A stretch of DNA of 34,225 nt from a virus. Lineage: Duplodnaviria > Caudoviricetes. Of the stretch, positions 348-34,028 are shown in pieces. The position numbers were made by a program, and so were the translations under genes. Numbering within the stretch: position 1 is the first letter of the stretch; every line of letters starts with the position of its first letter. Location: positions 1 through 34,225 of IMG/VR virus record IMGVR_UViG_3300042109_000062; one strand, 5' to 3'. The notes beneath the pieces are model-generated. The model made no database searches. It was not told where the DNA came from and worked only from the letters and a program-made list of their open reading frames with translations.

Positions 348-3203
348 TTACCGTGCGCCAACAATCGATACGGGCCTGCTGAAATAATTGTCGGCGGCCC
401 TGCGGATGTTGTTGTTGATATCACGAAGCTGCTGCGTTTGCAGACGCTGCTGTATCAGTTGCAAGTCTTGTGATCTCGTTGCAAGATCGACAACTAGGGC
501 AGCGCCCTCCTGCGTTCTGACATCAGTGCCCTGTATCATTTGCGGGCCAAGCGTGTTCAGCTGCCGCAATCGTTGTGCTTGGCGGTTTGCCTCTGCTTCG
601 GCTGCCTTGCGTTGTTCCTCAATAAGTTTTTGTTGCCGAGCGTTTTCCTCCTTCTGCATCCGCTGCTGCTCATCCGCTGCTGCCTGCGCTGCGGCCACTT
701 GTTGTTCGGCGTATTTGTCTTGAACTGCTAGTGCGTTTTGTTGAGCAGCCTCGGCCATTGCCTGCTCTTGCTTAGACGCCTCTTCGCGGCGGCGATTTTC
801 TTCTTCGATGTTGCGGAGTTCGTTGTTAAACAACTCCTGCTGTCTAGCAACTTCACGATCAAATGCTTCAGAGTTTAAGATTCCGTCGCGCGCCTGCTCC
901 TGAGCAGCAGCGATCCCCTGCTGCAGCCGCAGTGCGGCGTCAAAGCCGGCCTGGCCAAACTCTTGAGACTTGGCAACCAGGCCGTCAATGTTGTTGTTGA
1001 CCGCGTCGAATGCTGCCTGAAAGCCTTGGCCGAAGCCTTGCTCAAGTGCCTGCTGCTGGTCCTCCAGGCGGGCTTGCAGTTGGTCGAGCTCGCCTTGCCG
1101 AGCGGCAGCGGCGTCAGCCTCGGCGACGTTGTTGGCCTCTCGTGCTGCGGCCAGTTGCTCCGACACACGGGCCTGCTCCCGCTGGACCACCAGCAAGTCC
1201 TGCTCGATGCGGGCGGCCTCGTCGTTAGTCTGCAGTAGCTGGTCGAGACGCTTCTTGTCGGCGTCGGCCTGAGCCTGTGCAGCGTCAGCAGCCTCCTGCC
1301 GCAGTTGCCTCTCCTTTGTCAGCTCGCCGTTCAGTCGCTCCATGAAGTTGTTCATGATCTCGATCTGGTCGGCAGTCAGTTCGCCTTCCGCCGCCATCTG
1401 CGAGAACGTCGCCAGCGTGGCCTGCGACTGCTCAAGGAATGCCGACGTGCCGCCCTCGGCTGTCGATAGGAACTGGTCGAGGTCCGCAGTTGCGGCAGCC
1501 AGGTTAGCCTGCACCTGAACTTCTGGGAGCCGTGCGTTATCGATCTCCGACCGCAGCCCACGGATAAACCGCTGGCCTGCACCAACGCCAGCCGCCGTGG
1601 CGTCACCTTGACCTCCGGTAAAAATGCTGTTGAAAGTGTTTGCGGCATTTGCTGCCGCGGCTTTCATCTCCTGGGCATTTTTGCGGGCAGACTCTTCTGA
1701 CGCTGCCACCAGCCCGGACCCAAACGCTTCTAGGTCATCGCTCAAATACCCGCCGATGTTTTCAATGATCTTGCCAAAGCCAATCAAAAGCGTGTCTATG
1801 CCGATCTGGATGGCGTTAAAGGCAGCCCGAATACCTTCTGCACCTGTTAACAGCACCTTCGACGCCACGTCGAAAACGTCTGCCGTGTACGTCAGCGTTT
1901 CCCCGAGCGATCCAAAGTTTTCTACAAACGTGTCGAAGATGCCTGCGAAATATTCTGCTCCTTCCAGCAGCACGTCTGTGATGGCGTTGGCAATGCCGGT
2001 GCCGCCGGTGCCTTGTGATCCGCTCCATTCCTCAACGAATCGCAAGAACTCGTTAGTGACGGCCGTGACCGCTGGCGCGAGATTGCCGATCACCTGGCCC
2101 ACGATGCCGTTAATGGTTGCGGCCACTAAGTCAAAAGCGTCGTTCATGTCGGCGACGTTGTTGACCTGCGTCTCACTGATGATGATGCCGAGCCGCTCGG
2201 CACGGGCCCGTAGTTCCTCAATGCTGGCCGCACCTTCACGAAAGAGCGGAGCCAGTGCCGCACCCTGCTTGCCGAAGATGGCGACGGCGGCGGCAGCACG
2301 GTCTGCGGCCGTCGGCAGCTGCGAAATAGCCTGCCCAATCTCTGAAAACTGCTGCTCGGGCGACAACGCCCGCAGTTCCTGCAGCGACAGGTTGATTTCT
2401 TTCAAAGCCTTGTCGAGTGCATCACCAGGCGTGGCCTTGCCGATGCTCACGGCCAGCTTCTGCACGGCATTGCCGAACGCCTCGGTATCCACGCCAGCCA
2501 ACTTGGCTGCGAGCGAGTAGCCCTGCAGTGCCTCGACGCCTATGCCGGTTCGAGCCGACAGGTCGTTCAGCGAGTCGATACCAGAGTTGACAGACGTGAC
2601 CAGCGAACTAATGCGAGTAGCAACATCTCGGAATGCGTTGCCGATAGCTTGAATACCGCCGACGATAATGCGGCCGACTTCAATGCCGGCGAGAAGCCGG
2701 GTGTTGTCTGCTAATGACTTGATTTCTTTGTCGGTTTTGTCTGCGGCCTTGCCCACTCTGTCCAAGTCAGTGCGAGCTTTTTGGGCTGCTCTGTTGTACG
2801 TCTCTTGCGAGATGCGGCCAGCACGCAACTGCTCATCAAGCTCGTCCATTGTCTCCCGATATCGTTCAGTCGGGGAAATGTTTGCGCGAGTGATTTCGGC
2901 TGCACGCTTGAACGCAGCGGCCTCCTTGTCGATTTCCTCGCGAAGGTCTGCAAACTTCTTGGCAAACTCGCGAGGATCGAGGCCGCCCTCTAGCTGCTGC
3001 TGCAGTTTCTTAAACTCAGCGTTGAAGCGAGTCTGCGCAGCAGCACCAGCTTCGCTTTCCTTTGCAAACTGGTTAAAGACGGCAGTGGCCTTCTCGGCCT
3101 GCTCCCCAAGGTTCTCCAGCGCCCTCTCTGCTGGCGTAAGATTCTTGGCGACGCCAGATGCGTCGGCAGAAATCTTCATTGCCAGTGAAAGGATGTTGGC
3201 CAT
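348..3203 (-). CDS. Tail tape measure protein
   Basis: 951 aa, Ala/Gln/Glu-rich and helical. Typical N-terminus (MANILSLAMKISADASG) and TMP-like core (SLNDLSARTGIGVEALQG...AVAIFGKQG). Follows the tail assembly chaperones. Confidence 0.93.
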   Translation of the reverse strand: MANILSLAMKISADASGVAKNLTPAERALENLGEQAEKATAVFNQFAKESEAGAAAQTRFNAEFKKLQQQLEGGLDPREFAKKFADLREEIDKEAAAFKRAAEITRANISPTERYRETMDELDEQLRAGRISQETYNRAAQKARTDLDRVGKAADKTDKEIKSLADNTRLLAGIEVGRIIVGGIQAIGNAFRDVATRISSLVTSVNSGIDSLNDLSARTGIGVEALQGYSLAAKLAGVDTEAFGNAVQKLAVSIGKATPGDALDKALKEINLSLQELRALSPEQQFSEIGQAISQLPTAADRAAAAVAIFGKQGAALAPLFREGAASIEELRARAERLGIIISETQVNNVADMNDAFDLVAATINGIVGQVIGNLAPAVTAVTNEFLRFVEEWSGSQGTGGTGIANAITDVLLEGAEYFAGIFDTFVENFGSLGETLTYTADVFDVASKVLLTGAEGIRAAFNAIQIGIDTLLIGFGKIIENIGGYLSDDLEAFGSGLVAASEESARKNAQEMKAAAANAANTFNSIFTGGQGDATAAGVGAGQRFIRGLRSEIDNARLPEVQVQANLAAATADLDQFLSTAEGGTSAFLEQSQATLATFSQMAAEGELTADQIEIMNNFMERLNGELTKERQLRQEAADAAQAQADADKKRLDQLLQTNDEAARIEQDLLVVQREQARVSEQLAAAREANNVAEADAAAARQGELDQLQARLEDQQQALEQGFGQGFQAAFDAVNNNIDGLVAKSQEFGQAGFDAALRLQQGIAAAQEQARDGILNSEAFDREVARQQELFNNELRNIEEENRRREEASKQEQAMAEAAQQNALAVQDKYAEQQVAAAQAAADEQQRMQKEENARQQKLIEEQRKAAEAEANRQAQRLRQLNTLGPQMIQGTDVRTQEGAALVVDLATRSQDLQLIQQRLQTQQLRDINNNIRRAADNYFSRPVSIVGAR

Positions 3204-3205
3204 GG

Positions 3206-3496
3206 CTACTCAAACATGGCACCAAGCTTGGCTAGCTCGCGAGCCATTTCGTCAGATGTTTGCGGTGGTTTTTCTATCGGCACGAAATCGGACGCCTTTG
3301 GTGCCTTGCCTCTTTCGCTGTACGGCGCGAGCACGGCACTGGTGAGCAAGCCCGTCTGCTGCCACGGATCCGGCAGGGCGTGGTAGTAGCGGGTGAACGC
3401 CACCCACTCACTTAGCTCCTGCGAATCCATGCGGCGAGACAACTCACGCACTGTCATGCCAAGGTGCCCGGCGAGGCGGAACAGAAACCTCCGCAT
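3206..3496 (-). CDS. Tail assembly chaperone, gpT-like C-terminal part (expressed as G-T fusion by -1 frameshift)
   Basis: FLFRLAGHLGMTVRELSRRMDSQELSEWVAF resembles gpT-like domains. In the -1 frame of the upstream chaperone. Confidence 0.85.
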   Translation of the reverse strand: MRRFLFRLAGHLGMTVRELSRRMDSQELSEWVAFTRYYHALPDPWQQTGLLTSAVLAPYSERGKAPKASDFVPIEKPPQTSDEMARELAKLGAMFE

Positions 3497-3507
3497 CGGC
3501 CGGGTCT

Positions 3508-3885
3508 TTAGTTTTTTGCTAGCTCCTCCACGTCGCTTTCGGTCATGTTGTTGTGCTTCATCGCTCGGTCAAACAACTTCGTCACAACGGCCGACGACTT
3601 TTTTGCAAGCCGCTTAATGCCCTCCTCGTCGAAGAGCCTGTCGCCGCTCTCGGGATGGCACAAGCAGCGAGCGAGGTACTTGGTACGGAAGTTCTCAATG
3701 CCACGCTCCTTGTTGCCGATCCACTCCTGCTCGTAGGAGTCACGCTCCTCGACGGTCATGACGCGGATGCCGAGCACCAGCGGCTTGCCGTCCTTGTCCT
3801 TCCATTCCTTGACAGTGACCTTGAGAACCGACAGGTCGTCGGAGGCAAGGATCTGGGCTGCGAGCTCTTCGACTGACAGAGGCAT
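3508..3885 (-). CDS. Tail assembly chaperone gpG-like
   Basis: 125 aa, between tail tube genes and tape measure. Ends ...VEELAKN on the slippery sequence A AAA AAC. Confidence 0.85.
   Translation of the reverse strand: MPLSVEELAAQILASDDLSVLKVTVKEWKDKDGKPLVLGIRVMTVEERDSYEQEWIGNKERGIENFRTKYLARCLCHPESGDRLFDEEGIKRLAKKSSAVVTKLFDRAMKHNNMTESDVEELAKN
3511..3517 (-). other. Programmed -1 ribosomal frameshift slippery site A AAA AAC
   Basis: Minus strand reads GCA AAA AAC TAA. The -1 frame continues CTA AAG ACC CGG CCG ATG(3496) with no stop. Confidence 0.85.
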
Positions 3886-20876: not shown

Positions 20877-21736
20877 GGCTCCGGCATCCAAGACATGAGC
20901 ATCCGCTGCGACGGGTTCAGATACAGGTGCTGCCCGGTCGCCTCGGCGATGCTCTGGTGAAACGGCACATGCTCGCAGTCTGCGGTGCCGTCGTACGTGC
21001 CTCGCAGATAGGCGTCGGTGCGGTAGATGGTCATGCCGCCGAACGCACTCGACACAAGCACTGGAGGCGAGCCGACAGGCGGCAGCCAAGAGAAACCGAA
21101 ACCGCCGTAGCCGTTCTGGTAGGTGTCGTAATAGCAGCGATGCTGCCCGACGCCGCGAAGCGCCCAGAGGTCGTAATGCACCCACAGCGGTCCGTTGCCA
21201 AAGTCGTATTGAAACAGCGACACGCTCGACATGCCGTAGGCACCCGGCATTTCGACAAGCCAACCGATGCCGCTGAGCACGCCCTTCTCGTTCCAGCCGC
21301 CCCATGCGTCGAAGTCCACGACCACCACGTAGTCGGAGTCTGCAGCACACGCTCGCACCCACCGCTGGCAGGCGTCGCGGTACTCGGCGAGAGCCACGGT
21401 GCGCCGGCCGGCGAACTCGGCTGCGTACTGCTCGCGGCCAAGCATCTGGTAGTGGAAGGTGGCCTGATTGTGCTCGCGTGCGAAAGCCGCAAGCACCTCG
21501 AGCGTCTCATCCTCGCAGTCGTTCGACTCAACGTGTAGTTGCCACGTTTTGCACCGTCGCCCGAGGCTCTCGGCTAGGCCGAGGTTCTGCGCCAGCCTTG
21601 CCGCACAGTTGCGAGCGAGCCCGACAATGGCAATCCTGCTGTGACGCAGCCTCTCGGCACCTTCGGCGACACGCTCCTGATACGGCAGCAGGAATGGCTC
21701 GCTTGGAAACCAGAGCTTTGCCGGCATGTCAGGCAT
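20846..21736 (-). CDS. GT-A fold glycosyltransferase (CAP59-like)
   Basis: IAIVGLARN, VESNDCEDET, LAEYRD, YVVVVDFD (DxD), SAFGGMTIY and DCEHVPFH motifs. Confidence 0.75.
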   Translation of the reverse strand: MPDMPAKLWFPSEPFLLPYQERVAEGAERLRHSRIAIVGLARNCAARLAQNLGLAESLGRRCKTWQLHVESNDCEDETLEVLAAFAREHNQATFHYQMLGREQYAAEFAGRRTVALAEYRDACQRWVRACAADSDYVVVVDFDAWGGWNEKGVLSGIGWLVEMPGAYGMSSVSLFQYDFGNGPLWVHYDLWALRGVGQHRCYYDTYQNGYGGFGFSWLPPVGSPPVLVSSAFGGMTIYRTDAYLRGTYDGTADCEHVPFHQSIAEATGQHLYLNPSQRMLMSWMPEPCEVRPQQSA

Positions 21737-22496
21737 ACGGCACCTGCCTCCTCACGCACATGGCACGGCGCACCTCTTGCGGCAGATTCGTGCCGTCCAC
21801 CCACTCGCGGCACCGCTTGTAGAAGTGCTCGCGGCTCTCGCCTTCGCGGCCGATGGCACCGTACCCGGCCGGATCTTGAGTGAAGACCGCACCGAACTGC
21901 GGCACGTACGTGCAGCCATGCATGGCCGCTACCGCGGCGTATCCAATGGCGTCGCTCCACGGACCCATGCACCAGAACTCACGCTCGGCGAGCCACAGCA
22001 GATGCTCTCGGCGGATACCGGCACCTATCCCCGTCTCACTCGGCCACTGCCAATGAACAATGCGGTCGCAGGTGGCCGCCGCGTCGAGCGTCGTCGTCTC
22101 GGTGTATCCGCTGATGACTCCGTGCGTCACGCGGTTAGACGTGTCGCACACGTAGTAGTCGGTGAAGACCACTGCAGCATCAGCGTGGGCCTCGATGTGC
22201 CCGAGGCACCCATGCACTAGGGCGTCGTCGGCACCCATGCACACGACGTGCGTGCCCACCAGCGACGGGTAGACCGTGGCCGAAGCTTCTTGCCAATCAT
22301 CGCTTTTCTCGTCGTGACGCACGTATCGCACGCATGGGTAGTGCTGCTGCACATGCTCTACGACTGCCGCCGTGTCGTCCGTACTTGCGTCGTCAATGAC
22401 GACCACTTCGGCCGGGCCTTGAGCGGCCGCCGAGACAATGGCTCGAGCAAGCGTCTCCGCTCGGTTCCACGTCGGGATGACAACCGACACGCTCAC
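21729..22496 (-). CDS. Glycosyltransferase family 2
   Basis: VSVVIPTWNRA, VVVIDDASTD and MGADD motifs. Confidence 0.88.
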   Translation of the reverse strand: MSVSVVIPTWNRAETLARAIVSAAAQGPAEVVVIDDASTDDTAAVVEHVQQHYPCVRYVRHDEKSDDWQEASATVYPSLVGTHVVCMGADDALVHGCLGHIEAHADAAVVFTDYYVCDTSNRVTHGVISGYTETTTLDAAATCDRIVHWQWPSETGIGAGIRREHLLWLAEREFWCMGPWSDAIGYAAVAAMHGCTYVPQFGAVFTQDPAGYGAIGREGESREHFYKRCREWVDGTNLPQEVRRAMCVRRQVPYA

Positions 22497-23167
22497 AGCT
22501 TGGCTCCCGTGCAGATCGCCAGCCTGTAGTGCGCCATCGGGCCGAAGCCGGTGTGCAGCGTCTCGTCGTTCATGCCAAACAGGTAGACGTTTCGCCAGTA
22601 GTGCAACAGCGTGTCACGCAGCCCCTGTTCGGTCTTGCAGTTAACGTGCCCGGCCTTGCTCACTGCTGATGCGTATGGCTGCGACTCAAGCGACGGGCAG
22701 CCAAAGATCACGGTGCCGTGGACGCCTACGCTCAGTGCCATGTTGCCGAGGAAAAATCCCTCACGCTCGGCCGGCACATGCTCAAGCACGTCGAGAGCAA
22801 ACGCCGCGTCAAACTCCTGCAACAGACGGTCTGGCGGAAACGTCGGCTTCGCCGTCATGTCGTGTTGGCGTACCACGACGTTCTGTTGCTGGCGGCTCCT
22901 GGCGTATTCGACGAATCGCTCGTCAAAATCCACGCAGACAAGCGTGCCGACATCGCGGGCCACCACGGCCGATGCCCAAGCGTCTCCGCAACCGACCTCA
23001 AGCACTCGTTTGCTGCCGGCCAACATCTTGGCCACGAACTTGTACCGGGCAAGCGTAAACCCGAGCCGCTTCGGATCCGTTCGCCATGTGTAGTTTGCCA
23101 TGATGCCGAGCTCGGAGAGCCCGCAGGAGGCTAGGTCGTGCAGCGGCTGATATTGCGTCTCGCTCAT
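22493..23167 (-). CDS. Class I SAM-dependent methyltransferase
   Basis: ARYKFV, VLEVGCGD, CVDFD and FDAAFALDVLEHV motifs, typical of glycan-associated methyltransferases. Confidence 0.88.
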   Translation of the reverse strand: MSETQYQPLHDLASCGLSELGIMANYTWRTDPKRLGFTLARYKFVAKMLAGSKRVLEVGCGDAWASAVVARDVGTLVCVDFDERFVEYARSRQQQNVVVRQHDMTAKPTFPPDRLLQEFDAAFALDVLEHVPAEREGFFLGNMALSVGVHGTVIFGCPSLESQPYASAVSKAGHVNCKTEQGLRDTLLHYWRNVYLFGMNDETLHTGFGPMAHYRLAICTGAKL

Positions 23168-23562
23168 GACACTCGCACAGTCGTGCGCCCCTCCGTGCCA
23201 TACGACTTCTCGACCACAAGCCGGGCCACGCAGGTGTCGTCGCCGACCACGTCCTGCAGAGCGTCCAGCACGGCTTTGCCGATGTTGTCCACGTCGGGCC
23301 TCGGCAGTCGCGGTGCCGTGGCCTTCACGCCTGCCTTGTTCATGTGTGACTTCGGTCTGGCAAATACCGCATCAATCACCACGTTCAGCGGCTCGTCCGT
23401 GGCCGGAACGCTAGCCGCTCGAGCAGCTGCTGCTATTGCTTGGCGATACGCATGCACCGGATGCGTCTTCGGCACGTAGGCGCGAGCAAAGCCGCCGCGA
23501 GTTGAGACACGCGGCCGAGGCTGCGGCACCGGGTCGCCGTCAATGCTGAACGTCCACGACAT
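23164..23562 (-). CDS. rusA: RusA-like Holliday junction resolvase
   Basis: GDPVPQPRPR, RPDVDNIGKAVLDAL and GDDTCV...KSYG motifs. Confidence 0.9.
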   Translation of the reverse strand: MSWTFSIDGDPVPQPRPRVSTRGGFARAYVPKTHPVHAYRQAIAAAARAASVPATDEPLNVVIDAVFARPKSHMNKAGVKATAPRLPRPDVDNIGKAVLDALQDVVGDDTCVARLVVEKSYGTEGRTTVRVS

Positions 23563-24319
23563 GCTCTGACGGTAGCGGCGTAGTCAACTCGCCGGTCGTC
23601 GTCTCGGAGATCCAGCCAATGTAGTCGCCCACTCGCGTGTGGCCGCTTTCCTGCCCGGTCGTGCTGAGCACCTGGCCTTTGCCGTCCCGCATGACTATGG
23701 AGTGAATACCGGCAAGCCGACCGCGCACAAGCATCGCACCGCCGCTGTCGCCTGGTGCTGTCAGGATCTCGCGAGCCGACGTGCCGGCACACCCGTGGCA
23801 GATCCATAGGCTCCGGTCACGCCTGCAGATCGTGTTGGTTCCGGCCCGCCGCTCGCCATCAATGGTGTCGTAGCCGGTCGTTAGCGGCCCCGTCGCACCG
23901 TAGCCGACAATCACCACGTCGTCGCCGATGGCCTCTGTGCCGTCCGCCAGCAGCGGGTACGCCGCAAACCCTAGCGGCTCGTCGCAACGCAAAAGGGCCA
24001 GGTCGTGCTCGCCCATCATGGCGTGGCGAAAGCCGGGGTGCACAATTACGCGGCCTACAATCCACGTACGGTCGCCGAGATGGACGCTAGCCTGCTTGGC
24101 GTCATGCACGACGTGAGCGGCCGTAAGCAGCCACTGGTCGCTGATGGCCACGGCAGACCCGCAGCCAAGCTCTCCTTCGTGGTTCTCGGCGTAGAGCTTG
24201 AGCACGTAGCCGTGCTGGTCGCCGGCCTCAAGGTAGCGGGCGTCGTCGATTGCCGGGTCTGTCGTGCCCGCGAAGGCCGACCCGCACAAACACAGAAGAA
24301 TCAGCAGGCGTCGCCCCAT
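23540..24319 (-). CDS. Secreted trypsin-like (S1) serine protease
   Basis: Signal-peptide-like N-terminus and catalytic triad motifs LTAAHV, DLALL and GDSGG. Confidence 0.9.
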   Translation of the reverse strand: MGRRLLILLCLCGSAFAGTTDPAIDDARYLEAGDQHGYVLKLYAENHEGELGCGSAVAISDQWLLTAAHVVHDAKQASVHLGDRTWIVGRVIVHPGFRHAMMGEHDLALLRCDEPLGFAAYPLLADGTEAIGDDVVIVGYGATGPLTTGYDTIDGERRAGTNTICRRDRSLWICHGCAGTSAREILTAPGDSGGAMLVRGRLAGIHSIVMRDGKGQVLSTTGQESGHTRVGDYIGWISETTTGELTTPLPSEHVVDVQH

Positions 24320-24325
24320 GCACGG

Positions 24326-24356
24326 ATAATGGCATCCGTGTCACGCTGTCTTGCAG
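24326..24356 (-). promoter_or_regulatory. Putative late promoter CTGCAAG-N18-CATTAT (leaderless protease transcript)
   Basis: Copy of the four-copy motif. The ATG lies 6 nt after the -10-like hexamer. Confidence 0.62.
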
Positions 24357-24428
24357 CGGCGTTACGAAGGCTGCGTAGCAGCGGCATTGCGAGCGGCGCG
24401 GCCGCGTCGTGCGAAAGCGTAGGAAGTT

Positions 24429-24477
24429 ATGCAGCGGATGGTGCTGCTATGGGAAACAACAGAAACAATGGTTCTCT
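24429..24477 (+). repeat. Degenerate attC-like site 1
   Basis: Remnant left arm ATGCAGCGGA (24429-24438) and R' core GTTCTCT (24471-24477). Confidence 0.45.
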
Positions 24478-24480
24478 GCA

Positions 24481-25305
24481 CTACGCCACGCCAATCGGTA
24501 GCGCCTGTTGTGCCAACCGTTTCCGGCTGATCTCGACGTACTCCGGGTTCACTTCGATCCCGATGAATCGCCGCCCCGTCTCGCGGGCCATCTTCGCCGT
24601 CGTGCCGCTGCCACTGAACGGGTCGAGCACAACGTCGCCGGGGTTGCTCCATGAGAGGATGTGATCGCGGGCTAGGGCTTCTGGGAATGGCGCAGGATGT
24701 TCGTTTCCATCTCCTCCTACGTTCATTTGCCAGACGTTTGTGCGAAGCCCAAAAGCGGGTGTGATGCCAGATCCGGTTGCCCTCGCTCCGTTTTTCACGC
24801 ATCGACCTCCAGCCGTTTTCCGAAAGACCTTGCCAGCCGTTGCATTTGGGCGATCGGTTATCCGGTTCACGGTCGCGGGCAGTCCATTTGCAAACACGAA
24901 CATAAACTCCGCCGATTGCGGATATGCAAACTTGCTTCCATTTGCACCCTTTGGCGGCTTGTTCCAAATCATCGTGTCCAAAAGACGCAAGCCGATGCTC
25001 TTGAAGTGCAACGCCTGCCGATAGCTCGCGCCAGATTCGTCGGCGTCTTTCGTAGAGTCCGCCACGTTCCACACGATCACCCCGCCCGGCTTGAGCAGCC
25101 GCTTGAGATTCCACGCCACCCCGTAGAAATCCCACGAGTGGCCGCCGTAGGTACGGAGGTCGTCGTATGGCGGGCTCGTCACAACGAGGTCAATCGACTC
25201 GCTCGGCATCTGCCGCATTACATCGCAGTTGTCGCCGCAGATGATTTGGTCAAGCGGGAGAGAACCAGCCGATGCAACGGACGGCCCTGCTACGTCATGT
25301 GTCAT
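24481..25305 (-). CDS. Orphan DNA amino-methyltransferase, beta class (SPPY, probably N4-cytosine)
   Basis: IICGD, DLVVTSPPY, HPAPFP, VLDPFSGSGTT and FIGIE motifs. The start codon lies within the attC-like site. Confidence 0.93.
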   Translation of the reverse strand: MTHDVAGPSVASAGSLPLDQIICGDNCDVMRQMPSESIDLVVTSPPYDDLRTYGGHSWDFYGVAWNLKRLLKPGGVIVWNVADSTKDADESGASYRQALHFKSIGLRLLDTMIWNKPPKGANGSKFAYPQSAEFMFVFANGLPATVNRITDRPNATAGKVFRKTAGGRCVKNGARATGSGITPAFGLRTNVWQMNVGGDGNEHPAPFPEALARDHILSWSNPGDVVLDPFSGSGTTAKMARETGRRFIGIEVNPEYVEISRKRLAQQALPIGVA

Positions 25306-25347
25306 GGTGAGTTTTCCGGTGGCCGCCGTTGATCTTCCGTGTTCTGA
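25259..25347 (+). repeat. Intact integron attC-like recombination site 2
   Basis: AGAGAAC-CAGCCG-AT(G)CAACGG(A)CGGCC ... GGCCGCCGTTGAT-CTTCCGT-GTTCTGA: AAC/GTT cores, unpaired spacer, and L boxes with two extrahelical bases. Confidence 0.8.
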
Positions 25348-25348
25348 T

Positions 25349-25645
25349 CTACGCAACCTCTGCTAACTTCGCCCGCAGAACCCGGATGCACTCGTCGTTC
25401 TCTTCGTTGCTCGCCGGGTCGCTACGCTCGCTGGCGTTGCTCTCGGCAATGGCGAGTTCTTGCCGCAAGATTTCGACGGCTGCGGCCTTCTTCATCTCTG
25501 CGTCACGCAGCGTCCGCAAGAACGGCAGCGCAGCCTCTACGAGCGCGTGCATGGCACCGCCCCTTGCGTGCCAATCGCCGCGGGTCGTCTCCTTCTCTGC
25601 CAGCGTGATGATTGCGTCCAGTTCCCTGATGTCGATCATCTCCAA
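25349..25645 (-). CDS. Hypothetical protein (98 aa) in attC-bounded cassette
   Basis: TAAGGAG SD before a TTG start. Stop is adjacent to the attC-like R' box. Confidence 0.68.
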   Translation of the reverse strand: MEMIDIRELDAIITLAEKETTRGDWHARGGAMHALVEAALPFLRTLRDAEMKKAAAVEILRQELAIAESNASERSDPASNEENDECIRVLRAKLAEVA

Positions 25646-25653
25646 TGCTCCTT

Positions 25654-25725
25654 ATCAGGACCACGCGATGCCGTCTGCGGAATTGTAAGTCAGCGGTCGC
25701 GGGCCGCTTATCCTGCGTGTTCTGG
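25654..25725 (+). repeat. Partly degenerate attC-like site 3
   Basis: ATCAGGAC-CACGCG-ATG ... GGGCCGCTTAT-CCTGCGT-GTTCTGG. Right arm conserved, left arm damaged. Confidence 0.6.
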
Positions 25726-25794
25726 CTATCTACTAGCCACTTACTAACTTCCGAATTTTTTTATATTTGCCGCTTACCAGATTACGGCGACGGT

Positions 25795-25810
25795 ATCGCT
25801 GGCGTTCTTA
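25795..25810 (+). repeat. attC-like right half-site 4
   Basis: AT-CGCTGGC-GTTCTTA with the same spacing as sites 2 and 3. Overlaps the upstream gene's stop codon. Confidence 0.5.
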
Positions 25811-26011
25811 GGCGAGCCCAGCCATGTTGCGAGCCTGTCGCAGAATCTCGTCGTGTAGTGCCCGCTCGTTTTCCCACGCCACCTTCCAACCATCACGCTC
25901 AATCCGCAACCGCTCGATCTCGCCAGCCGCCTCCGCGAGCAGCGCCGAGCGGTCCAGCGCACGGCACGCTTTGACGCTCTCGCGGAGACGCTGGACAAGG
26001 TCGTCGCTCAT
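25808..26011 (-). CDS. Hypothetical protein (67 aa)
   Basis: MSDDLVQRLR...EAAGEIERLR pattern, common in small phage early proteins. ATGA overlap. Confidence 0.7.
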   Translation of the reverse strand: MSDDLVQRLRESVKACRALDRSALLAEAAGEIERLRIERDGWKVAWENERALHDEILRQARNMAGLA

Positions 26012-26394
26012 GACCTGGCCCCTTGCGGCAAGTATTCGCCTCGACGCCACGCACTCACCTTGCCGATGGTCGTGTTGTCTCTCTCGCACCGCCGCTGCTC
26101 GTAGTGCCGCTCGCGACACTCTCGTGCTCGGGCTTCCACCCAAGGCGACAACGCCAAACTATCCAGCGACGCCGCGTCATCCTCTGGCGACGGCGGCGGC
26201 GGCTCCTGCGAGACAGGCACGTAGTCAATCTTCCGCCTCGGCAGCTGATACCGCTGAGCCCAGGTGTAAATCGTGCTTGTTGACACCTTGAACCGCACAG
26301 CGATCTCCGCTTTTGTGCGACCCTCTGCCCACATCGCAAACAACGTCGCCACGTCGCCGCCAGTGTGGTGATTCATCTTCGACTTCGCAGGCAT
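26008..26394 (-). CDS. HTH protein (GcrA-like N-terminus)
   Basis: LFAMWAEGRTKAEIAVRFKVSTSTIYTWAQRYQLPRR. TGATG overlap with dnaN. Confidence 0.72.
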   Translation of the reverse strand: MPAKSKMNHHTGGDVATLFAMWAEGRTKAEIAVRFKVSTSTIYTWAQRYQLPRRKIDYVPVSQEPPPPSPEDDAASLDSLALSPWVEARARECRERHYEQRRCERDNTTIGKVSAWRRGEYLPQGARS

Positions 26395-27497
26395 CAAGCG
26401 TCCTCCGACAGCGGCATGATGACGCCACGGTACTCGCCGCACGTTATCGTCACAGCGCCGCCGGGCTCGGTCGTGTGAATCGACACGTTCGGCTCCTCGT
26501 CGCTCGGCACGCCGTGCAGGTACTCAATCACGAATCGAGGATCCATCTTGACTCTGCAAGGCGTCCCGGCCTGCACCACGTCGCACTTGACCTTTGACTC
26601 GCCGTACTCAGACGACTTGCCAGTGAGCACGAGCGACTCGCCGAAGTCGTAGAGCACACCCCTTGACTGCTCGCTTGTGACGACGCCGGCCGCCCTGGTC
26701 GCAGCCAAGAGTTCGCCACGGTCTACCGCGTGCGGCTCAGTGCTCGCCTCGGGGAACACGTCGCGCCAGCGTGGGAACTTGCCATCTAGCAGGCGGGCGG
26801 TCAGCACGCCTCCGTCGAACGTAAGCACCACGTCCGACTCGGTCGCCTCGATCTGCACCGAGCCCTCGCTGCGCTCTGCGAGCGTGGCTGCGAATCGCAT
26901 GGCCACTGCTGGCACCAGCGTCTGCGAGTTGTCCACCGCCTGGTCAGTCTCGGTCTGCACCGCAGACAGACGCCGGCCATCGGTGGCCACAAACGTAGGG
27001 TCGCCGCCGGTCACGTCAATGAGCACCGCGCCGAGGGCGTAGCGGCTCGACTCGCTGTCGCATGCGTACGACACGGCGCGAACCGCTCGCACGAACTGGT
27101 CGGCCGGCAGGCGGCAGATAGGCGTCGCACCAGCGGTCTCCCAAACCGGGAACTTGGCAGCGTCCTCGGTGGGCAAATCCCACCTGCCCCGTCCGCACTT
27201 GATCGTGACTGCACCAGCCTTTGGCGTGAGCGTCACGCTGTCGCCATGGCTGCACGTCCGCAGGATGGCCAGTAGCCGCTCGGCCGGCAGCAGCATCGGC
27301 TCGCACATCTCGCCAATCTCGCGGTCAATGCGGATCTCGAGGTTGGTCCCCGTGATGAGCCCGTCGCCGATGCGGACGTTGCCCAGGATCGGCTTCGCTC
27401 CGCGGCTCGACACGACCCTCGTCACGTCCTGCAGTGCCGCCAGCAGCGTGCCGGCCTGCATGGTCAATCCCGTTCTTTCCCTAGTTGCTGTCGCCAT
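26394..27497 (-). CDS. dnaN: DNA polymerase III beta sliding clamp homolog
   Basis: 367 aa. KPILGNV, TGTNLE, SSRYALGAV, VATDGRRL, RLLDGKFPRWRDVFP and VIMPL motifs. Confidence 0.93.
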   Translation of the reverse strand: MATATRERTGLTMQAGTLLAALQDVTRVVSSRGAKPILGNVRIGDGLITGTNLEIRIDREIGEMCEPMLLPAERLLAILRTCSHGDSVTLTPKAGAVTIKCGRGRWDLPTEDAAKFPVWETAGATPICRLPADQFVRAVRAVSYACDSESSRYALGAVLIDVTGGDPTFVATDGRRLSAVQTETDQAVDNSQTLVPAVAMRFAATLAERSEGSVQIEATESDVVLTFDGGVLTARLLDGKFPRWRDVFPEASTEPHAVDRGELLAATRAAGVVTSEQSRGVLYDFGESLVLTGKSSEYGESKVKCDVVQAGTPCRVKMDPRFVIEYLHGVPSDEEPNVSIHTTEPGGAVTITCGEYRGVIMPLSEDA

Positions 27498-28083: not shown

Positions 28084-28976
28084 AGATCCTCCTCCTTGAG
28101 TTTCACGGCCTCTGCAAGCGCCACGACTTCGTGCGGCCGACGGTATGGTGCCGGCCGGTACTGCGAAAACTCTTTCGCCTTTCGATCCAGCAACTGCCGC
28201 TTAGCCACGTCCTCTGGCGTCTTGCCTGCTGACCTGTTGGTGCCGCCCTTGTCCTGCGAGCGAGTCAGCCAGGCCACAAAGAACCGACGCCAGTTTGATT
28301 TCTTGGCTCTTGTGGGATTTCCACGCAGCCATTCGGTAGCCCGCAGAAGCTCTATGTCCACGACGCACGCCGGGTACGCCTCAGCCCACGTCTTTCGGTC
28401 TGCGTCAGAAATCCCCTGCCATCCAGCATCCAAAGTCCAGCGGATCGGCTCGTGGTGCTGCGAGCGTTTCCGACGCTTCGGCGGATCGCTCGTAGCAACA
28501 ACCGGCGCAGCCGGTTGAATAATTTCTCCGTCAGGAGAAATGCCTGCATTTGACGTTGACGTTGACGTTGACGTTGGATGGCATCCGTTTGCTGTGCGTT
28601 TGCTATGCGTTTGCCGTGCGTTTGCTATGCGCGACGCATCACCGCACCACCGCCCAGACGCCGCAGACTTCGCAGCCTGCGATCGCTTCTCTCGGATCTC
28701 GACGCACCGGCAGCGGTGCTCCTCAAGCTTGGCGTTCCGCCTTGTGCCGTCTTCGCAGGCCGGGAACTTCTCCGACAGGACGTTCCAGCATTTGCCGACG
28801 CCAGCAGACAGCCTCTCGAGGTCGGCCAGGTCAGCCGGAAGACAGCCTCTGTCCCACTGGATCATCAGTAGAGTCAGGTAGTGGCCTCGTTCCTCAGCAG
28901 TCCAGCCAATGGTGCTGGTAAGGAAATCACGAACGTACAGCGGGAGGTAAACGTCCACGCGAGTGTCAGCGGGCAT
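28080..28976 (-). CDS. Replication initiator-like protein (DUF1376/YdaU family N-terminus)
   Basis: YLPLYVRDFL..T...TAEERGHYLTLLMIQW...LP. TS-repeat linker. C-terminal KSNWRRFFVAWL. Internal iterons. Confidence 0.82.
   Translation of the reverse strand: MPADTRVDVYLPLYVRDFLTSTIGWTAEERGHYLTLLMIQWDRGCLPADLADLERLSAGVGKCWNVLSEKFPACEDGTRRNAKLEEHRCRCVEIREKRSQAAKSAASGRWCGDASRIANARQTHSKRTANGCHPTSTSTSTSNAGISPDGEIIQPAAPVVATSDPPKRRKRSQHHEPIRWTLDAGWQGISDADRKTWAEAYPACVVDIELLRATEWLRGNPTRAKKSNWRRFFVAWLTRSQDKGGTNRSAGKTPEDVAKRQLLDRKAKEFSQYRPAPYRRPHEVVALAEAVKLKEEDL
28588..28631. repeat. Four tandem 11-bp repeats TTTGCYRTGCG (probable origin iterons)
   Basis: TTTGCTGTGCG TTTGCTATGCG TTTGCCGTGCG TTTGCTATGCG inside the initiator gene. 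Confidence 0.75.
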
Positions 28977-30523: not shown

Positions 30524-30763
30524 CTAGTACCCGCTCCGATCTAGATAGGCGTCCTCTTGCTCCGTGGTCCGCTTCGTGCCAGGCCGCAGCCTGACGGGCG
30601 GCAGACTTCTCCACCGTCTGCGGTTCTCTGCCTCAAGCCGTCGCTGCTCAATCGCCTCGGAGCATTTCTCGGCCGCAATCTCGCCGTCGATCTCGTCGAT
30701 GTACCGCCGCCACTCGTGGCGGTTACGCTGCGGGTCGTCGCTGAAATGCACAGGCGTGCTCAT
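30524..30763 (-). CDS. Hypothetical protein (79 aa)
   Basis: ATGA overlap with the recT stop. Confidence 0.65.
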   Translation of the reverse strand: MSTPVHFSDDPQRNRHEWRRYIDEIDGEIAAEKCSEAIEQRRLEAENRRRWRSLPPVRLRPGTKRTTEQEDAYLDRSGY

Positions 30764-31599
30764 GCCGTCACCTCGTGCTCAGCGGCCTCGTGGGCAAAGT
30801 CCGTTCCGCTGTCGCTCGACTCAATCAGCATCTCGGCGCGGTGCCGCATCAGGGCAACAAGCTCGTCGTGCTCAGCCGGCGTGAAGATGCCTTCGCCGAG
30901 CCGGCGATCAACGAGCCGGCGTAGCGTGTCGAGCCCGTCGATGGTGTCGGCCTTGCTGACCGCCAGGCGGGCCTTGCCCATCGGGTCTTCAGCCGTCTTC
31001 GGCGGATCTGCCGGCTTCACCACGCCCTCGAGCTTCGGCCGGATGACAACCGGCTCGCGAGCCGGCTCGTAGTCCTGAGCCTCCTCGGCTGTCACCAAGC
31101 CCTTGAGCACGTCGGGGAAGGCGTCACGCAGGGCGAAGCCACGGGCACGCAGTTGCAGCATCCGCTTGGGGTACTGCGTCCACGGGCCAGCCTTGCCCCA
31201 GAGTCCGGCCTTTTTGGCGTCGGCCACGCTGAACCGAGCCACCGTTGGATTCTCATAGCCACGCCGCTTGGCCTGGCACGTCGCCACCATTGAGTCGCCG
31301 TCGCCCTCGATAGACTCGCGGACGTGCTCACAGACGGGCGATCCCATGACGAGGGCCAGCGCTGCGTCTCCCCACACGCTCGGCCGCCCGTTGATGCAGG
31401 CAATGCTCTGCAGGCTCTGCATCGGAGACAGCCCCACCTCGCTTCCGTGCTGAATAGCCAACAAGCAGGATTCCGGCTTGTTCTTGAAGTCCTTTGGAGC
31501 GAAGTCGCTGGCAGCCACCATCTTGGCGAACCGGTATGCGTCATCGAACGATTGGAGGGCAAGTCCGCCTGCCGGTTGCGTGCTGATTTCTGTGGTCAT
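30760..31599 (-). CDS. recT: RecT-family single-strand annealing protein
   Basis: AIQHGSEVGLSPMQSLQSIACINGRPSVWGD, AKKAGLW.K.GPW.QYPKRML..RARGFALRDAFPDVL.G motifs. Confidence 0.85.
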   Translation of the reverse strand: MTTEISTQPAGGLALQSFDDAYRFAKMVAASDFAPKDFKNKPESCLLAIQHGSEVGLSPMQSLQSIACINGRPSVWGDAALALVMGSPVCEHVRESIEGDGDSMVATCQAKRRGYENPTVARFSVADAKKAGLWGKAGPWTQYPKRMLQLRARGFALRDAFPDVLKGLVTAEEAQDYEPAREPVVIRPKLEGVVKPADPPKTAEDPMGKARLAVSKADTIDGLDTLRRLVDRRLGEGIFTPAEHDELVALMRHRAEMLIESSDSGTDFAHEAAEHEVTA

Positions 31600-31733
31600 C
31601 GCGTCCCTTTCTGCGTTGTGGAAAATGGCCCGCTCGGCGTCATGCTCTGCGGGTGGTGTTGCGTCCTTGCTGCTGCGGTTCCACCGCACTCCTTCCGGCA
31701 ACTAGCTCCGCTGGCTGCCGGTCCTGTGTGCCT

Positions 31734-33110: not shown

Positions 33111-34028
33111 ATGCCGATGCCGATGCGAGAACTACTCGAGCGATACGCCCTGTTACGCGGTCTGAAAGGCAAGACGGTCAAGCTCTACGAAATGCTCCTA
33201 GACCGCCTACAAGCGTTCCTAGGACACGAGCCGACTGCGGCCGACCTCGATGACCTAGTCATCAGCCGCTACCTCCGGTGGCGAGCAGAGACGCCTGGCT
33301 GGCGTGGTCGGCTGCCCAGTGCGGCCAGCGTCCGCAAGGACCGCGTGATGCTGGCCGCGATCTGGACCTACGCGGCCCGCAAGAAGATCGCCGCCGAGTT
33401 TCCCGAGCTCCCAAAGGTCAAGGTTCCCAAGCGCCTGCCTACCGGCCGCGCCTACACAGCAGAAGACGTGTCCAGACTGATACGTGCCGCTCGGCATCGC
33501 AGGGGGCTAGTAGGCGGCCTGCCGTCCGCCTGGTGGTGGCAGACCATCCTCTACGCCATCTACTGCACTGGCGAGCGTCTTGAGGCCACCATGTCGCTCA
33601 GGTGGGCCGACGTGGATCTAGAGCGGTGTCGGGTCGTTTTTCGAGGCGAGCACCGCAAGGGCGGCACCAGAGACATTGAGCGGCAGATTACGCCGCAGCT
33701 GGCCGCCATGATGGCCCTGCACCGCCGCAGCCCTGATGACCTAGTTTGGCCTTGGGATCGACGCAGCCGCTGCCAGTGGGCTTCTCTCAGGATCCTGTGC
33801 CGGATAGCCGGCGTGCAGTACCGAGGATTCCACGGCCTGCGTCGGACGGCCGCGAGTTACGCCGCCCTAGCCGGCGGAACGGCGGCAGCCACGCAGCTGC
33901 TCGACCATTCGGACCCTAATCTCCAAAAAGTTTACGTGGACCCGCTCATTTGCCCTACGGACTCCAGCAGCATCGCCGGACTGCCACCGCTAGACCTTGG
34001 CGATCACGGGCCAGGCAAGCCTCGCTGA
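33111..34028 (+). CDS. int: Tyrosine recombinase / phage integrase
   Basis: Catalytic R (TGER), K (HRKGG), HxxR (FHGLRR), H (LLDHS) and Y (KVY) residues, with a core-binding N-domain. Confidence 0.92.
   Translation: MPMPMRELLERYALLRGLKGKTVKLYEMLLDRLQAFLGHEPTAADLDDLVISRYLRWRAETPGWRGRLPSAASVRKDRVMLAAIWTYAARKKIAAEFPELPKVKVPKRLPTGRAYTAEDVSRLIRAARHRRGLVGGLPSAWWWQTILYAIYCTGERLEATMSLRWADVDLERCRVVFRGEHRKGGTRDIERQITPQLAAMMALHRRSPDDLVWPWDRRSRCQWASLRILCRIAGVQYRGFHGLRRTAASYAALAGGTAAATQLLDHSDPNLQKVYVDPLICPTDSSSIAGLPPLDLGDHGPGKPR

Follow-up and report, generated by a model that had tools for sequence, protein, structure and literature searches.

The window analysed here, a stretch of DNA of 34,225 nucleotides, is most of the genome of a temperate long-tailed phage (an estimated 85% of it). 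It encodes a terminase, a portal, an HK97-like capsid, tail genes, a RecT-like protein, DnaN and a tyrosine integrase, and nearly all of its genes lie on the minus strand. It is a lake phage and occurs in freshwater runs. A short array, flanked by an HTH gene and the gene of a trypsin-like protease, closes the replication/early block; its last gene is predicted to encode an N6/N4 DNA methyltransferase. The protein matches PF01555 with an E-value of 2e-41 (142.8 bits, the cut-off being 26.7) and has the catalytic and SAM-binding motifs. The coordinates of the array and of other features considered below are given in Table 1.

The host is probably a planctomycete of the order Pirellulales. Sites related to the attC-type site of the window are present in Planctomycetota, among other phyla, and the phage DnaN has matches at 38-42% in Pirellulales and one copy at 56%, which lies on a short contig. 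Since the DnaN comparison covered this one order, the host is inferred.

Several other features were observed in the window. The gene of the DNA polymerase III beta clamp (26394-27497, minus strand) scores above the TIGR00663 cut-off and is conserved in related phages. The trypsin-like protease (23540-24319, minus strand) has a signal-like N-terminus, and its gene lies directly behind the attI-like site; in relatives, a different gene encoding a secreted-looking protein of 100 aa occupies its place. An 11-nt unit is repeated three to four times in tandem at 28583-28626, inside a replication-initiator-like gene, and these repeats are possibly origin iterons. Glycosyltransferase-like and methyltransferase-like genes are found between RusA and the packaging module (21729-23167, minus strand).

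Table 1. Features of the array and of its surroundings (positions in the window unless a locus is named)
Feature	Position	Strand	Remarks
attI-like docking site	24426-24477	+	repeats GTTATGC (24426) and GCTATGG (24446)
L-like box of the attI-like site	24459-24465		5-nt spacer to the R box
R box of the attI-like site	24471-24477
Cassette 1, 870 bp: methylase with its attC	24472-25341		gene inverted relative to canonical cassettes; junctions in L093 and L094
Orphan DNA methyltransferase (predicted), 274 aa	24481-25305	-	Pfam N6_N4_Mtase / phrog_67; SPPY motif before FxGxG
attC-type site	25259-25347	top strand on +	scanner geometry, covariation, L093 junction
R'' of the attC-type site	25259-25265
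Stem	25271-25286
Loop	25287-25320		34 nt
Partner stem	25321-25334
R' of the attC-type site	25341-25347
Likely start codon and site-encoded leader MTHDVAGPSVASAG(S)	25262-25305	-	frame, family matches, decayed relatives
Weakened Shine-Dalgarno-like GGAAAA	25312-25317	-	6 nt before the ATG; family mostly GGAGGA
Cassette 2, 378 bp	25342-25719		contains ORF 25349-25645 (-), no assigned identity
Cassette remnant, 85 bp	25720-25807		follows immediately on the stop codon of the upstream phage gene; ends in an R' box and a partial attC arm
RecT-like annealing protein	30760-31701	-	bears on the homologous recombination alternative
Phage tyrosine integrase	33111-34028	+	no match to the integron integrase model TIGR02249
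Minimal 50-nt attC variants	L059:120-169, L065:859-908, L068:129-178, L083:679-728

Borders and layout of the cassettes

Over 2.3 kb, locus L093 and the window share 98.9% identity. The two sequences match up to the tetranucleotide GAAC (25344-25341), which we take to be the integron cut point, and L093 then continues with a different attC and a different gene. Since the divergence falls exactly at GAAC, the site and the gene downstream of it form an inverted cassette of 870 bp. In L094, the attC of the window is found directly behind the upstream phage gene and in front of other cargo, and the sequence rejoins the window at 24478. As expected of attC sites, the natural junctions in L093 and L094 fall at AAC of R' on the bottom strand. 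Stop codons are found no more than 13 nt from the next cut point in 68 of 93 cassettes. Together, the junctions, the stop positions and the sharing of attC families between pairs of sites (see below) indicate that the unit consists of an attC and its downstream gene (24472-25341). The original prediction of a reversed layout, with the attC ahead of the gene, is supported by the L093 junction.

The ORF of cassette 2 has its own AAGGAG and a likely start at ATG 25639. In the attC of this cassette (25658-25722), about 16 nt are missing between two short direct repeats, and an attC fold is no longer formed. The locus thus contains one intact site, one decayed site and one remnant, and agrees with the definition of a CALIN, that is, at least two close attC sites without intI; relatives have up to six attC sites per locus. 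It does not agree with the definition of a canonical cassette, whose ORF lies on the top strand and ends at or near R'': the methylase ORF is a bottom-strand ORF with its start within the site.

Loose ends at 25344-25346 occur in lake assemblies, and no joint skipping the cassette was found in eight runs of assembled contigs. One contig in X2, joining the attC family of the window to the tail of a related methylase, was considered as a circle and rejected; its remainder does not map to the methylase, and it is read as another array order. A frame lock of whole cassettes was also rejected, as their lengths modulo 3 are distributed as 58/45/38 of 141, although missed sites may blur this count.

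The attC-type site and the methylase start

The window was scanned for the attC geometry, namely AAC, a spacer of 5-7 nt, a stem with two extrahelical bases, and GTT. A single match was found (25259-25347, score 16, 14 of 14 Watson-Crick pairs), and ten dinucleotide shuffles produced six matches in total with a top score of 11. The R'' and R' cores (AAC and GTT) are separated by spacers of 5-8 nt from paired L boxes. The R''/L'' arm, where attC sites have two or three extrahelical bases, contains two, G25274 and A25281 (plus strand), which are nearly invariant in 34 related sites. In these sites 93.6% of 606 cells are paired, with 104 two-sided changes compared to 33 in shuffles; since the 34 sequences were picked from scanner hits, part of this pairing is built in, and the argument from it is partly circular. 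Only five cells of the set are wobble pairs, and slid controls drop to 25-51% paired. The structure is thus maintained by compensatory changes in this preselected set. The folding energy of the site is not exceptional (z-scores -1.2 and -1.7); therefore the case for attC relies on geometry, covariation and junctions. An Rfam search of the window gave no match, and the GenBank phage collection contains no match to the site. Judged by its sequence, the stretch 25259-25347 is confirmed as an attC-type site. The attC-like hairpin originally predicted here is thus the sole scanner match of the window and retains compensatory pairing in relatives.

The R' box, GTTCTGA, departs from the consensus GTTRRRY and resembles the host sites. 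The crossover at R' presumably falls between 25341 and 25342. According to the accessible part of Nivina et al. (PMC5027507), the arm with the extrahelical bases marks the strands, and the bottom strand is the recombinogenic one. Here these bases are on the plus-strand arm next to AAC; therefore plus is the top strand, and the coding strand of the methylase, and its mRNA, correspond to the bottom strand.

Both the ATG (25305-25303, minus strand) and the GGAAAA motif (25317-25312) lie within the loop. The methylase frame then passes through the L''/R'' arm and enters LDQIICGD of the N6_N4_Mtase domain, exactly as had been predicted for this ATG and its upstream purine stretch. Two details of the prediction have to be corrected. 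The leader is indeed encoded by the site, but it comprises 14 residues (MTHDVAGPSVASAG and part of a Ser codon) rather than 17. The residues S-L-P belong to the methylase: leaderless homologues start with MPSLP, MSALP or MNLP followed by LDQI, and homologues without a long leader begin 2-6 residues ahead of LDQI. Similarly, the purine stretch is in the loop, but the Shine-Dalgarno box of this copy is a weakened variant. GGAAAA is seen in one of 29 members of the attC family, most copies having GGAGGA-like motifs; GGAGGA-like forms occur in lake assemblies too, where the variant of the window is in the minority.

The only in-frame ATG, GTG or TTG codons upstream of LDQIICGDNC are ATG 25305 and TTG 25356. 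No such codon that would allow a start downstream of 25259 is present between the site and this conserved N-terminal motif. The TTG overlaps the upstream stop; given its frame and the weak GGAAAA, the window copy could also start at this TTG. The original prediction that hairpin folding could couple the gene to the upstream stop is unsupported; the distance between this stop and the ATG is 43 nt. In three decayed relatives (L001, L002 and L009, two of them near-identical) the first arm of the hairpin is lost, and the ATG and the leader are in the same place, with an in-frame stop three codons upstream of the ATG. Thus ATG 25305 is the likely start of the methylase. In the predicted RNA fold of the window, the Shine-Dalgarno position is unpaired and the AUG is in a weak inner hairpin; over 98 sites, the mean unpaired probability across the loop is about 0.5-0.6. 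The modelled folding is compatible with initiation in the loop and is not a proof of it.

The same three relatives, around positions 2900-3860, have the appearance of a domesticated methylase cassette, with the leading hairpin and the trailing GAAC border eroded and the leader kept.

Start signals and leaders across viral sites

A pattern describing only the arms, with the loop left free, found 41 viral loci. Each of the 42 matches listed has an ATG in frame within its loop; 17 of them also have an in-frame stop directly ahead of the site. Over all viral loci there are 186 sites, nine of which are near contig ends and were left out. Of the remaining 177, 97 are direct fusions (85 with a Shine-Dalgarno-like motif), 11 have a short leader ending near the downstream start, and three have a short unlinked leader. 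At 66 sites the leader frame has no ATG, which is a point against the reading favoured below.

In a viral set gathered with patterns from the attC family of the window, which includes near-duplicate phages and is enriched for this family yet covers 62 attC families, a Shine-Dalgarno-like motif and an ATG open through R'' were observed at 106 of 181 unique sites, versus six of 200 sites from bacterial genomes. The frame at R'' is common to 99 of these 106 sites. An ORF ends at R' on the bottom strand at 138 of 164 viral and 27 of 153 genome sites. This stop-position test took over from a comparison of longest ORFs (110 vs 60 in viral and 43 vs 119 in genome sites), which is noisy in GC-rich DNA. 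Bottom strands are purine-biased, as stated in the accessible part of PMC5027507. This bias may have pre-adapted the loop, but alone it gives no such pattern of Shine-Dalgarno box and ATG in bacterial sites.

Capture of genes just upstream of their native starts, which should leave an extra Met, was considered and rejected: an own Met within the first ten residues is seen in 12 of 87 distinct fused cargos, no more than in the background.

Minimal attC variants of 50 nt (Table 1), devoid of loop, Shine-Dalgarno box and ATG, occur in the same arrays, and their cargo has its own start. In L069, L080 and L083/L094, a protein of 290 aa is encoded behind a leader ORF of 25-27 aa whose stop overlaps the start of the cargo; three different attC variants stand in front of it.

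The attC family of the window heads 19 protein clusters, 15 of them by fusion, and at the DNA level it precedes 23 cargo 5' families. Its cargos include C5 methylases and another N6/N4 type; of 17 cargo proteins tested, 13 have no Pfam match. Unrelated proteins with the same leader, whose existence had been predicted, were thus found well beyond the methylases, and the DNA of the leader-bearing sites keeps the attC pairing. As the same hairpin family occurs before many unrelated genes, it is likely to be a swappable gene-start module, in support of the prediction that the recombination site doubles as a portable start.

The leaders are exchanged too, since the methylase body SLPLDQIICGD is found with at least six different leaders matching other attC families (at the DNA level for two families). 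Of the 21 cargo families that recur, 12 are found with more than one attC family. Among 24 listed swap pairs, which are not independent, 14 cease to be identical at most 3 nt from the R'' core (GTT); the spacer, moreover, mutates within attC families. This position of the ends hints at site-specific exchange at the R'' core. Pairs of sites with the same cargo share the attC family in 20 of 47 cases and the upstream flank in one of 47, and pairs with the same upstream flank share the attC family in three of 39. In the other 27 of 47 same-cargo pairs, the attC and the cargo are unlinked, which is not explained by plain recombination at R'. Such shuffling of leaders between cargos agrees with the suggestion that ORFs are captured in frame, but no capture itself was seen.

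The attI-like site and the mode of cassette movement

The array ends at the motif 24459-24477, preceded by two GTTATG-like repeats 20 nt apart. This end motif recurs in unrelated phages. It lies downstream of same-strand attC sites in 48 of the 50 cases having such sites; 12 further cases have no detected attC, and the motif was never found with opposite-strand sites. Four relatives of the methylase cassette adjoin it. A 56-nt profile of the phage end sites was run over 26 Pirellulales intI loci and matched L313 (E-value 7e-5), L296 (0.008) and L309 (0.05), the best control being 0.11 in 505 kb of other genome loci; only three of the 26 loci reach 0.05, which counts against the likeness. A longer profile (130 nt) gave nothing at E<0.4 in the genome loci, where the 56-nt core did match. 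The match in L296 is located just after the intI stop and not at the head of the array. The match is followed, in L313 and L309 and on visual inspection also in L305, by a gene in forward orientation and by an attC of the same direction, and the host cores align with the phage end sites. Given this likeness to host attI, the phage likely keeps an attI of the host type; sequence likeness and the position at the array head are what identify it.

Integron integrases above the cut-off were found in 20 of 121 genomes of the order Pirellulales and in none of 11 phage records, which comprise the window (estimated at 85% of its genome) and ten related records (estimated to be 90-100% complete). Thus these records do not have an intI beside the array, as a complete integron would. 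A consensus scan of 24200-26100, uninformative by itself, gave no promoter-like site on the plus strand.

Phage CALINs, i.e. attC clusters without an integron integrase, some of them with methylases, have been published (Qi et al. 2023, PMC9892861), and IntI1 was reported there to recombine phage attC sites. The present arrays are similar in that attC sites occur in phages lacking IntI and carry orphan N6/N4 methylases. However, the accessible part of that paper treats cassettes with the usual layout or with divergent sites and says nothing of bottom-strand genes, starts inside attC or exchange of leaders; it mentions an attI with a CALIN only in a Shewanella prophage having its own intI. Canonical cassettes, as treated in the accessible text of Nivina et al. 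2016 (PMC5027507), have the same R and L boxes, two extrahelical bases, the cut in AAC of the bottom-strand R' and a purine-rich bottom strand; bottom-strand selection keeps their gene on the top strand under Pc, with the attC behind it. In the window, in contrast, the gene is on the bottom strand, the attC comes first and Pc is not needed. The R' of the window begins with GTTC, and its first bottom-strand extrahelical base is C, as opposed to G16 of class 1 sites in the same text; the host sites share both features with the window.

Recombination sites bearing translation signals for a cassette gene are known as well: short ORFs in attI1 (ORF-11) and in attC aid translation of the downstream cassette (PMC8876359, accessible part of a review citing Jacquier et al.). 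Those ORFs are separate, short, on the top strand, and act on the next cassette, whereas the start in the window, located on the bottom strand, is part of the cassette that it serves, and in its family it is mostly fused to the protein. The chromosomal integrons of Pirellulales (L291, L296, L305, L309, L313) have the same attC layout and length, GTTC/GTTA cores and a closely similar attI core; unlike the phage arrays, they have mostly forward cassettes, attC loops that rarely contain a Shine-Dalgarno box and an ATG, and arrays beside intI. Finally, IntI can join attC to short genomic GWT sites, leading to attG insertion and SALINs (bioRxiv 10.1101/2022.09.11.507474, in its accessible part), a possible route to new cassette ends, but the phage arrays end at a conserved attI-like site and not at scattered secondary sites.

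A literature search, with subscription journals largely outside it, found no published description of bottom-strand genes starting inside attC, although the supplements of PMC9892861 may show inverted genes; the accessible parts of PMC8352920, PMC4889954 and bioRxiv 10.1101/2022.09.11.507474 do not mention this layout. The observation itself is real, and what is new is a cassette with a bottom-strand gene starting inside attC, within the known integron cassette system.

We favour, with a probability of about 0.75, the following reading: an integron-type attC heads an inverted phage cassette, its loop holds a likely ribosome-binding site and start, and the IntI of the host likely inserts cassettes at the retained attI-like site. 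The geometry, orientation and frame, the GAAC borders, the spread over unrelated genes and the likeness of the end site to host attI are seen directly; the start of translation in the loop and the recombination by IntI we infer. Host IntI would recombine the bottom strand at R', adding cassettes at the attI-like site at the far end of the phage early operon. Given bottom-strand genes and a site oriented against the operon, each insertion would place the new gene at the end of the early transcript. The promoter of the phage operon, and not an integron Pc, would transcribe the array, yielding an mRNA that corresponds to the bottom strand, and ribosomes would start in the attC loop, where each added gene brings its own start. 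A second, rarer exchange near R'' may put different attC leaders on one gene body, which would be workable because most sites cross R'' in the same frame. The leaders are likely to be low-information extensions, exchanged or left behind upon decay of the hairpin.

One alternative is that the attC-derived linkers now act mainly as shared homology for a RecT-like recombinase of the phage, the hairpins being relics and selection keeping the start. Indeed, the window encodes a RecT-like protein, the 11 phage records have no IntI, site 2 is decayed, decayed hairpins retain the ATG, and some leader swaps share 9-20 nt before the core. On the other hand, GAAC is all that is shared at the L093 junction ahead of two different attC families, at most 3 nt are shared before GTT in 14 of the 24 listed (not independent) swap pairs, compensatory pairing and fixed extrahelical positions extend over many families, and a conserved attI-like site closes the arrays. 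We therefore consider this explanation unlikely. It is rather improbable that the attC itself is mobile, by exchange at both R' and R'', as a small start-codon module inserting before genes, with the cassette a by-product. In that case the attC would not be expected to track the downstream gene over the upstream flank (20 of 47 versus three of 39), nor the stops to lie at most 13 nt from the next cut point in 68 of 93 cases, as in tight gene cassettes, even though 12 of 21 recurring cargo families are each combined with two or more attC families, at least six attC-type leaders are found on one methylase body, and top-strand recombination at R'' is documented at a low rate in the accessible part of PMC5027507.

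A tyrosine recombinase encoded by the phage, such as the integrase of the window, might move the cassettes instead of host IntI. This integrase, however, does not match TIGR02249 and is encoded 7.8 kb away in a lysogeny position, and the attC and attI-like sites match those of chromosomal integrons, so its involvement is very improbable. The chance that the ATG in the loop is an accident of gene calling, with the methylase starting further in, is slighter still. The weak Shine-Dalgarno box of the window copy would agree with it, but in this frame the next ATG (25218) comes only after the conserved LDQIICGDNC segment, and the ATG position and the Shine-Dalgarno box are conserved in the family and missing from bacterial sites.

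An inverted cassette inserted by host IntI would turn the textbook cassette round, with the recombination site placed ahead of the gene and supplying its start. A phage could therefore extend its early operon at the end with accessory genes, often anti-restriction methylases, and would need neither an integrase of its own nor a cassette promoter. One prediction is that many phage proteins bear short attC-derived N-termini irrelevant to their function. To our knowledge, it is unexplained how a gene first becomes joined to an attC; the leader reassortment at R'' suggests one specific route that can be tested. A speculative and somewhat doubtful extension is that planctomycete phages run a "reverse integron" on host IntI: top-strand recombination at R'' would graft a ribosome-binding site and a start onto any gene, at a short GTT motif close to its 5' end, and the unit would be closed just after the stop through bottom-strand recombination at R'. 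If this were true, phage early operons would be a place where integron cassettes arise, and the origin of cassettes would become testable.

In the Pirellulales integrons L291, L296, L305 and L313, the attI and the array are at the 3' end of intI and have the same orientation as intI. In L291 and L296 a half motif of the attI-like type directly follows the intI stop. A Planctomycetaceae MAG (L180:6860-7111) contains one site with a Shine-Dalgarno box and an ATG on the bottom strand, together with an inverted ORF, in a chromosomal-looking and mostly forward attC array, as if a phage-type cassette had entered a host array. A similar site was observed in L210.
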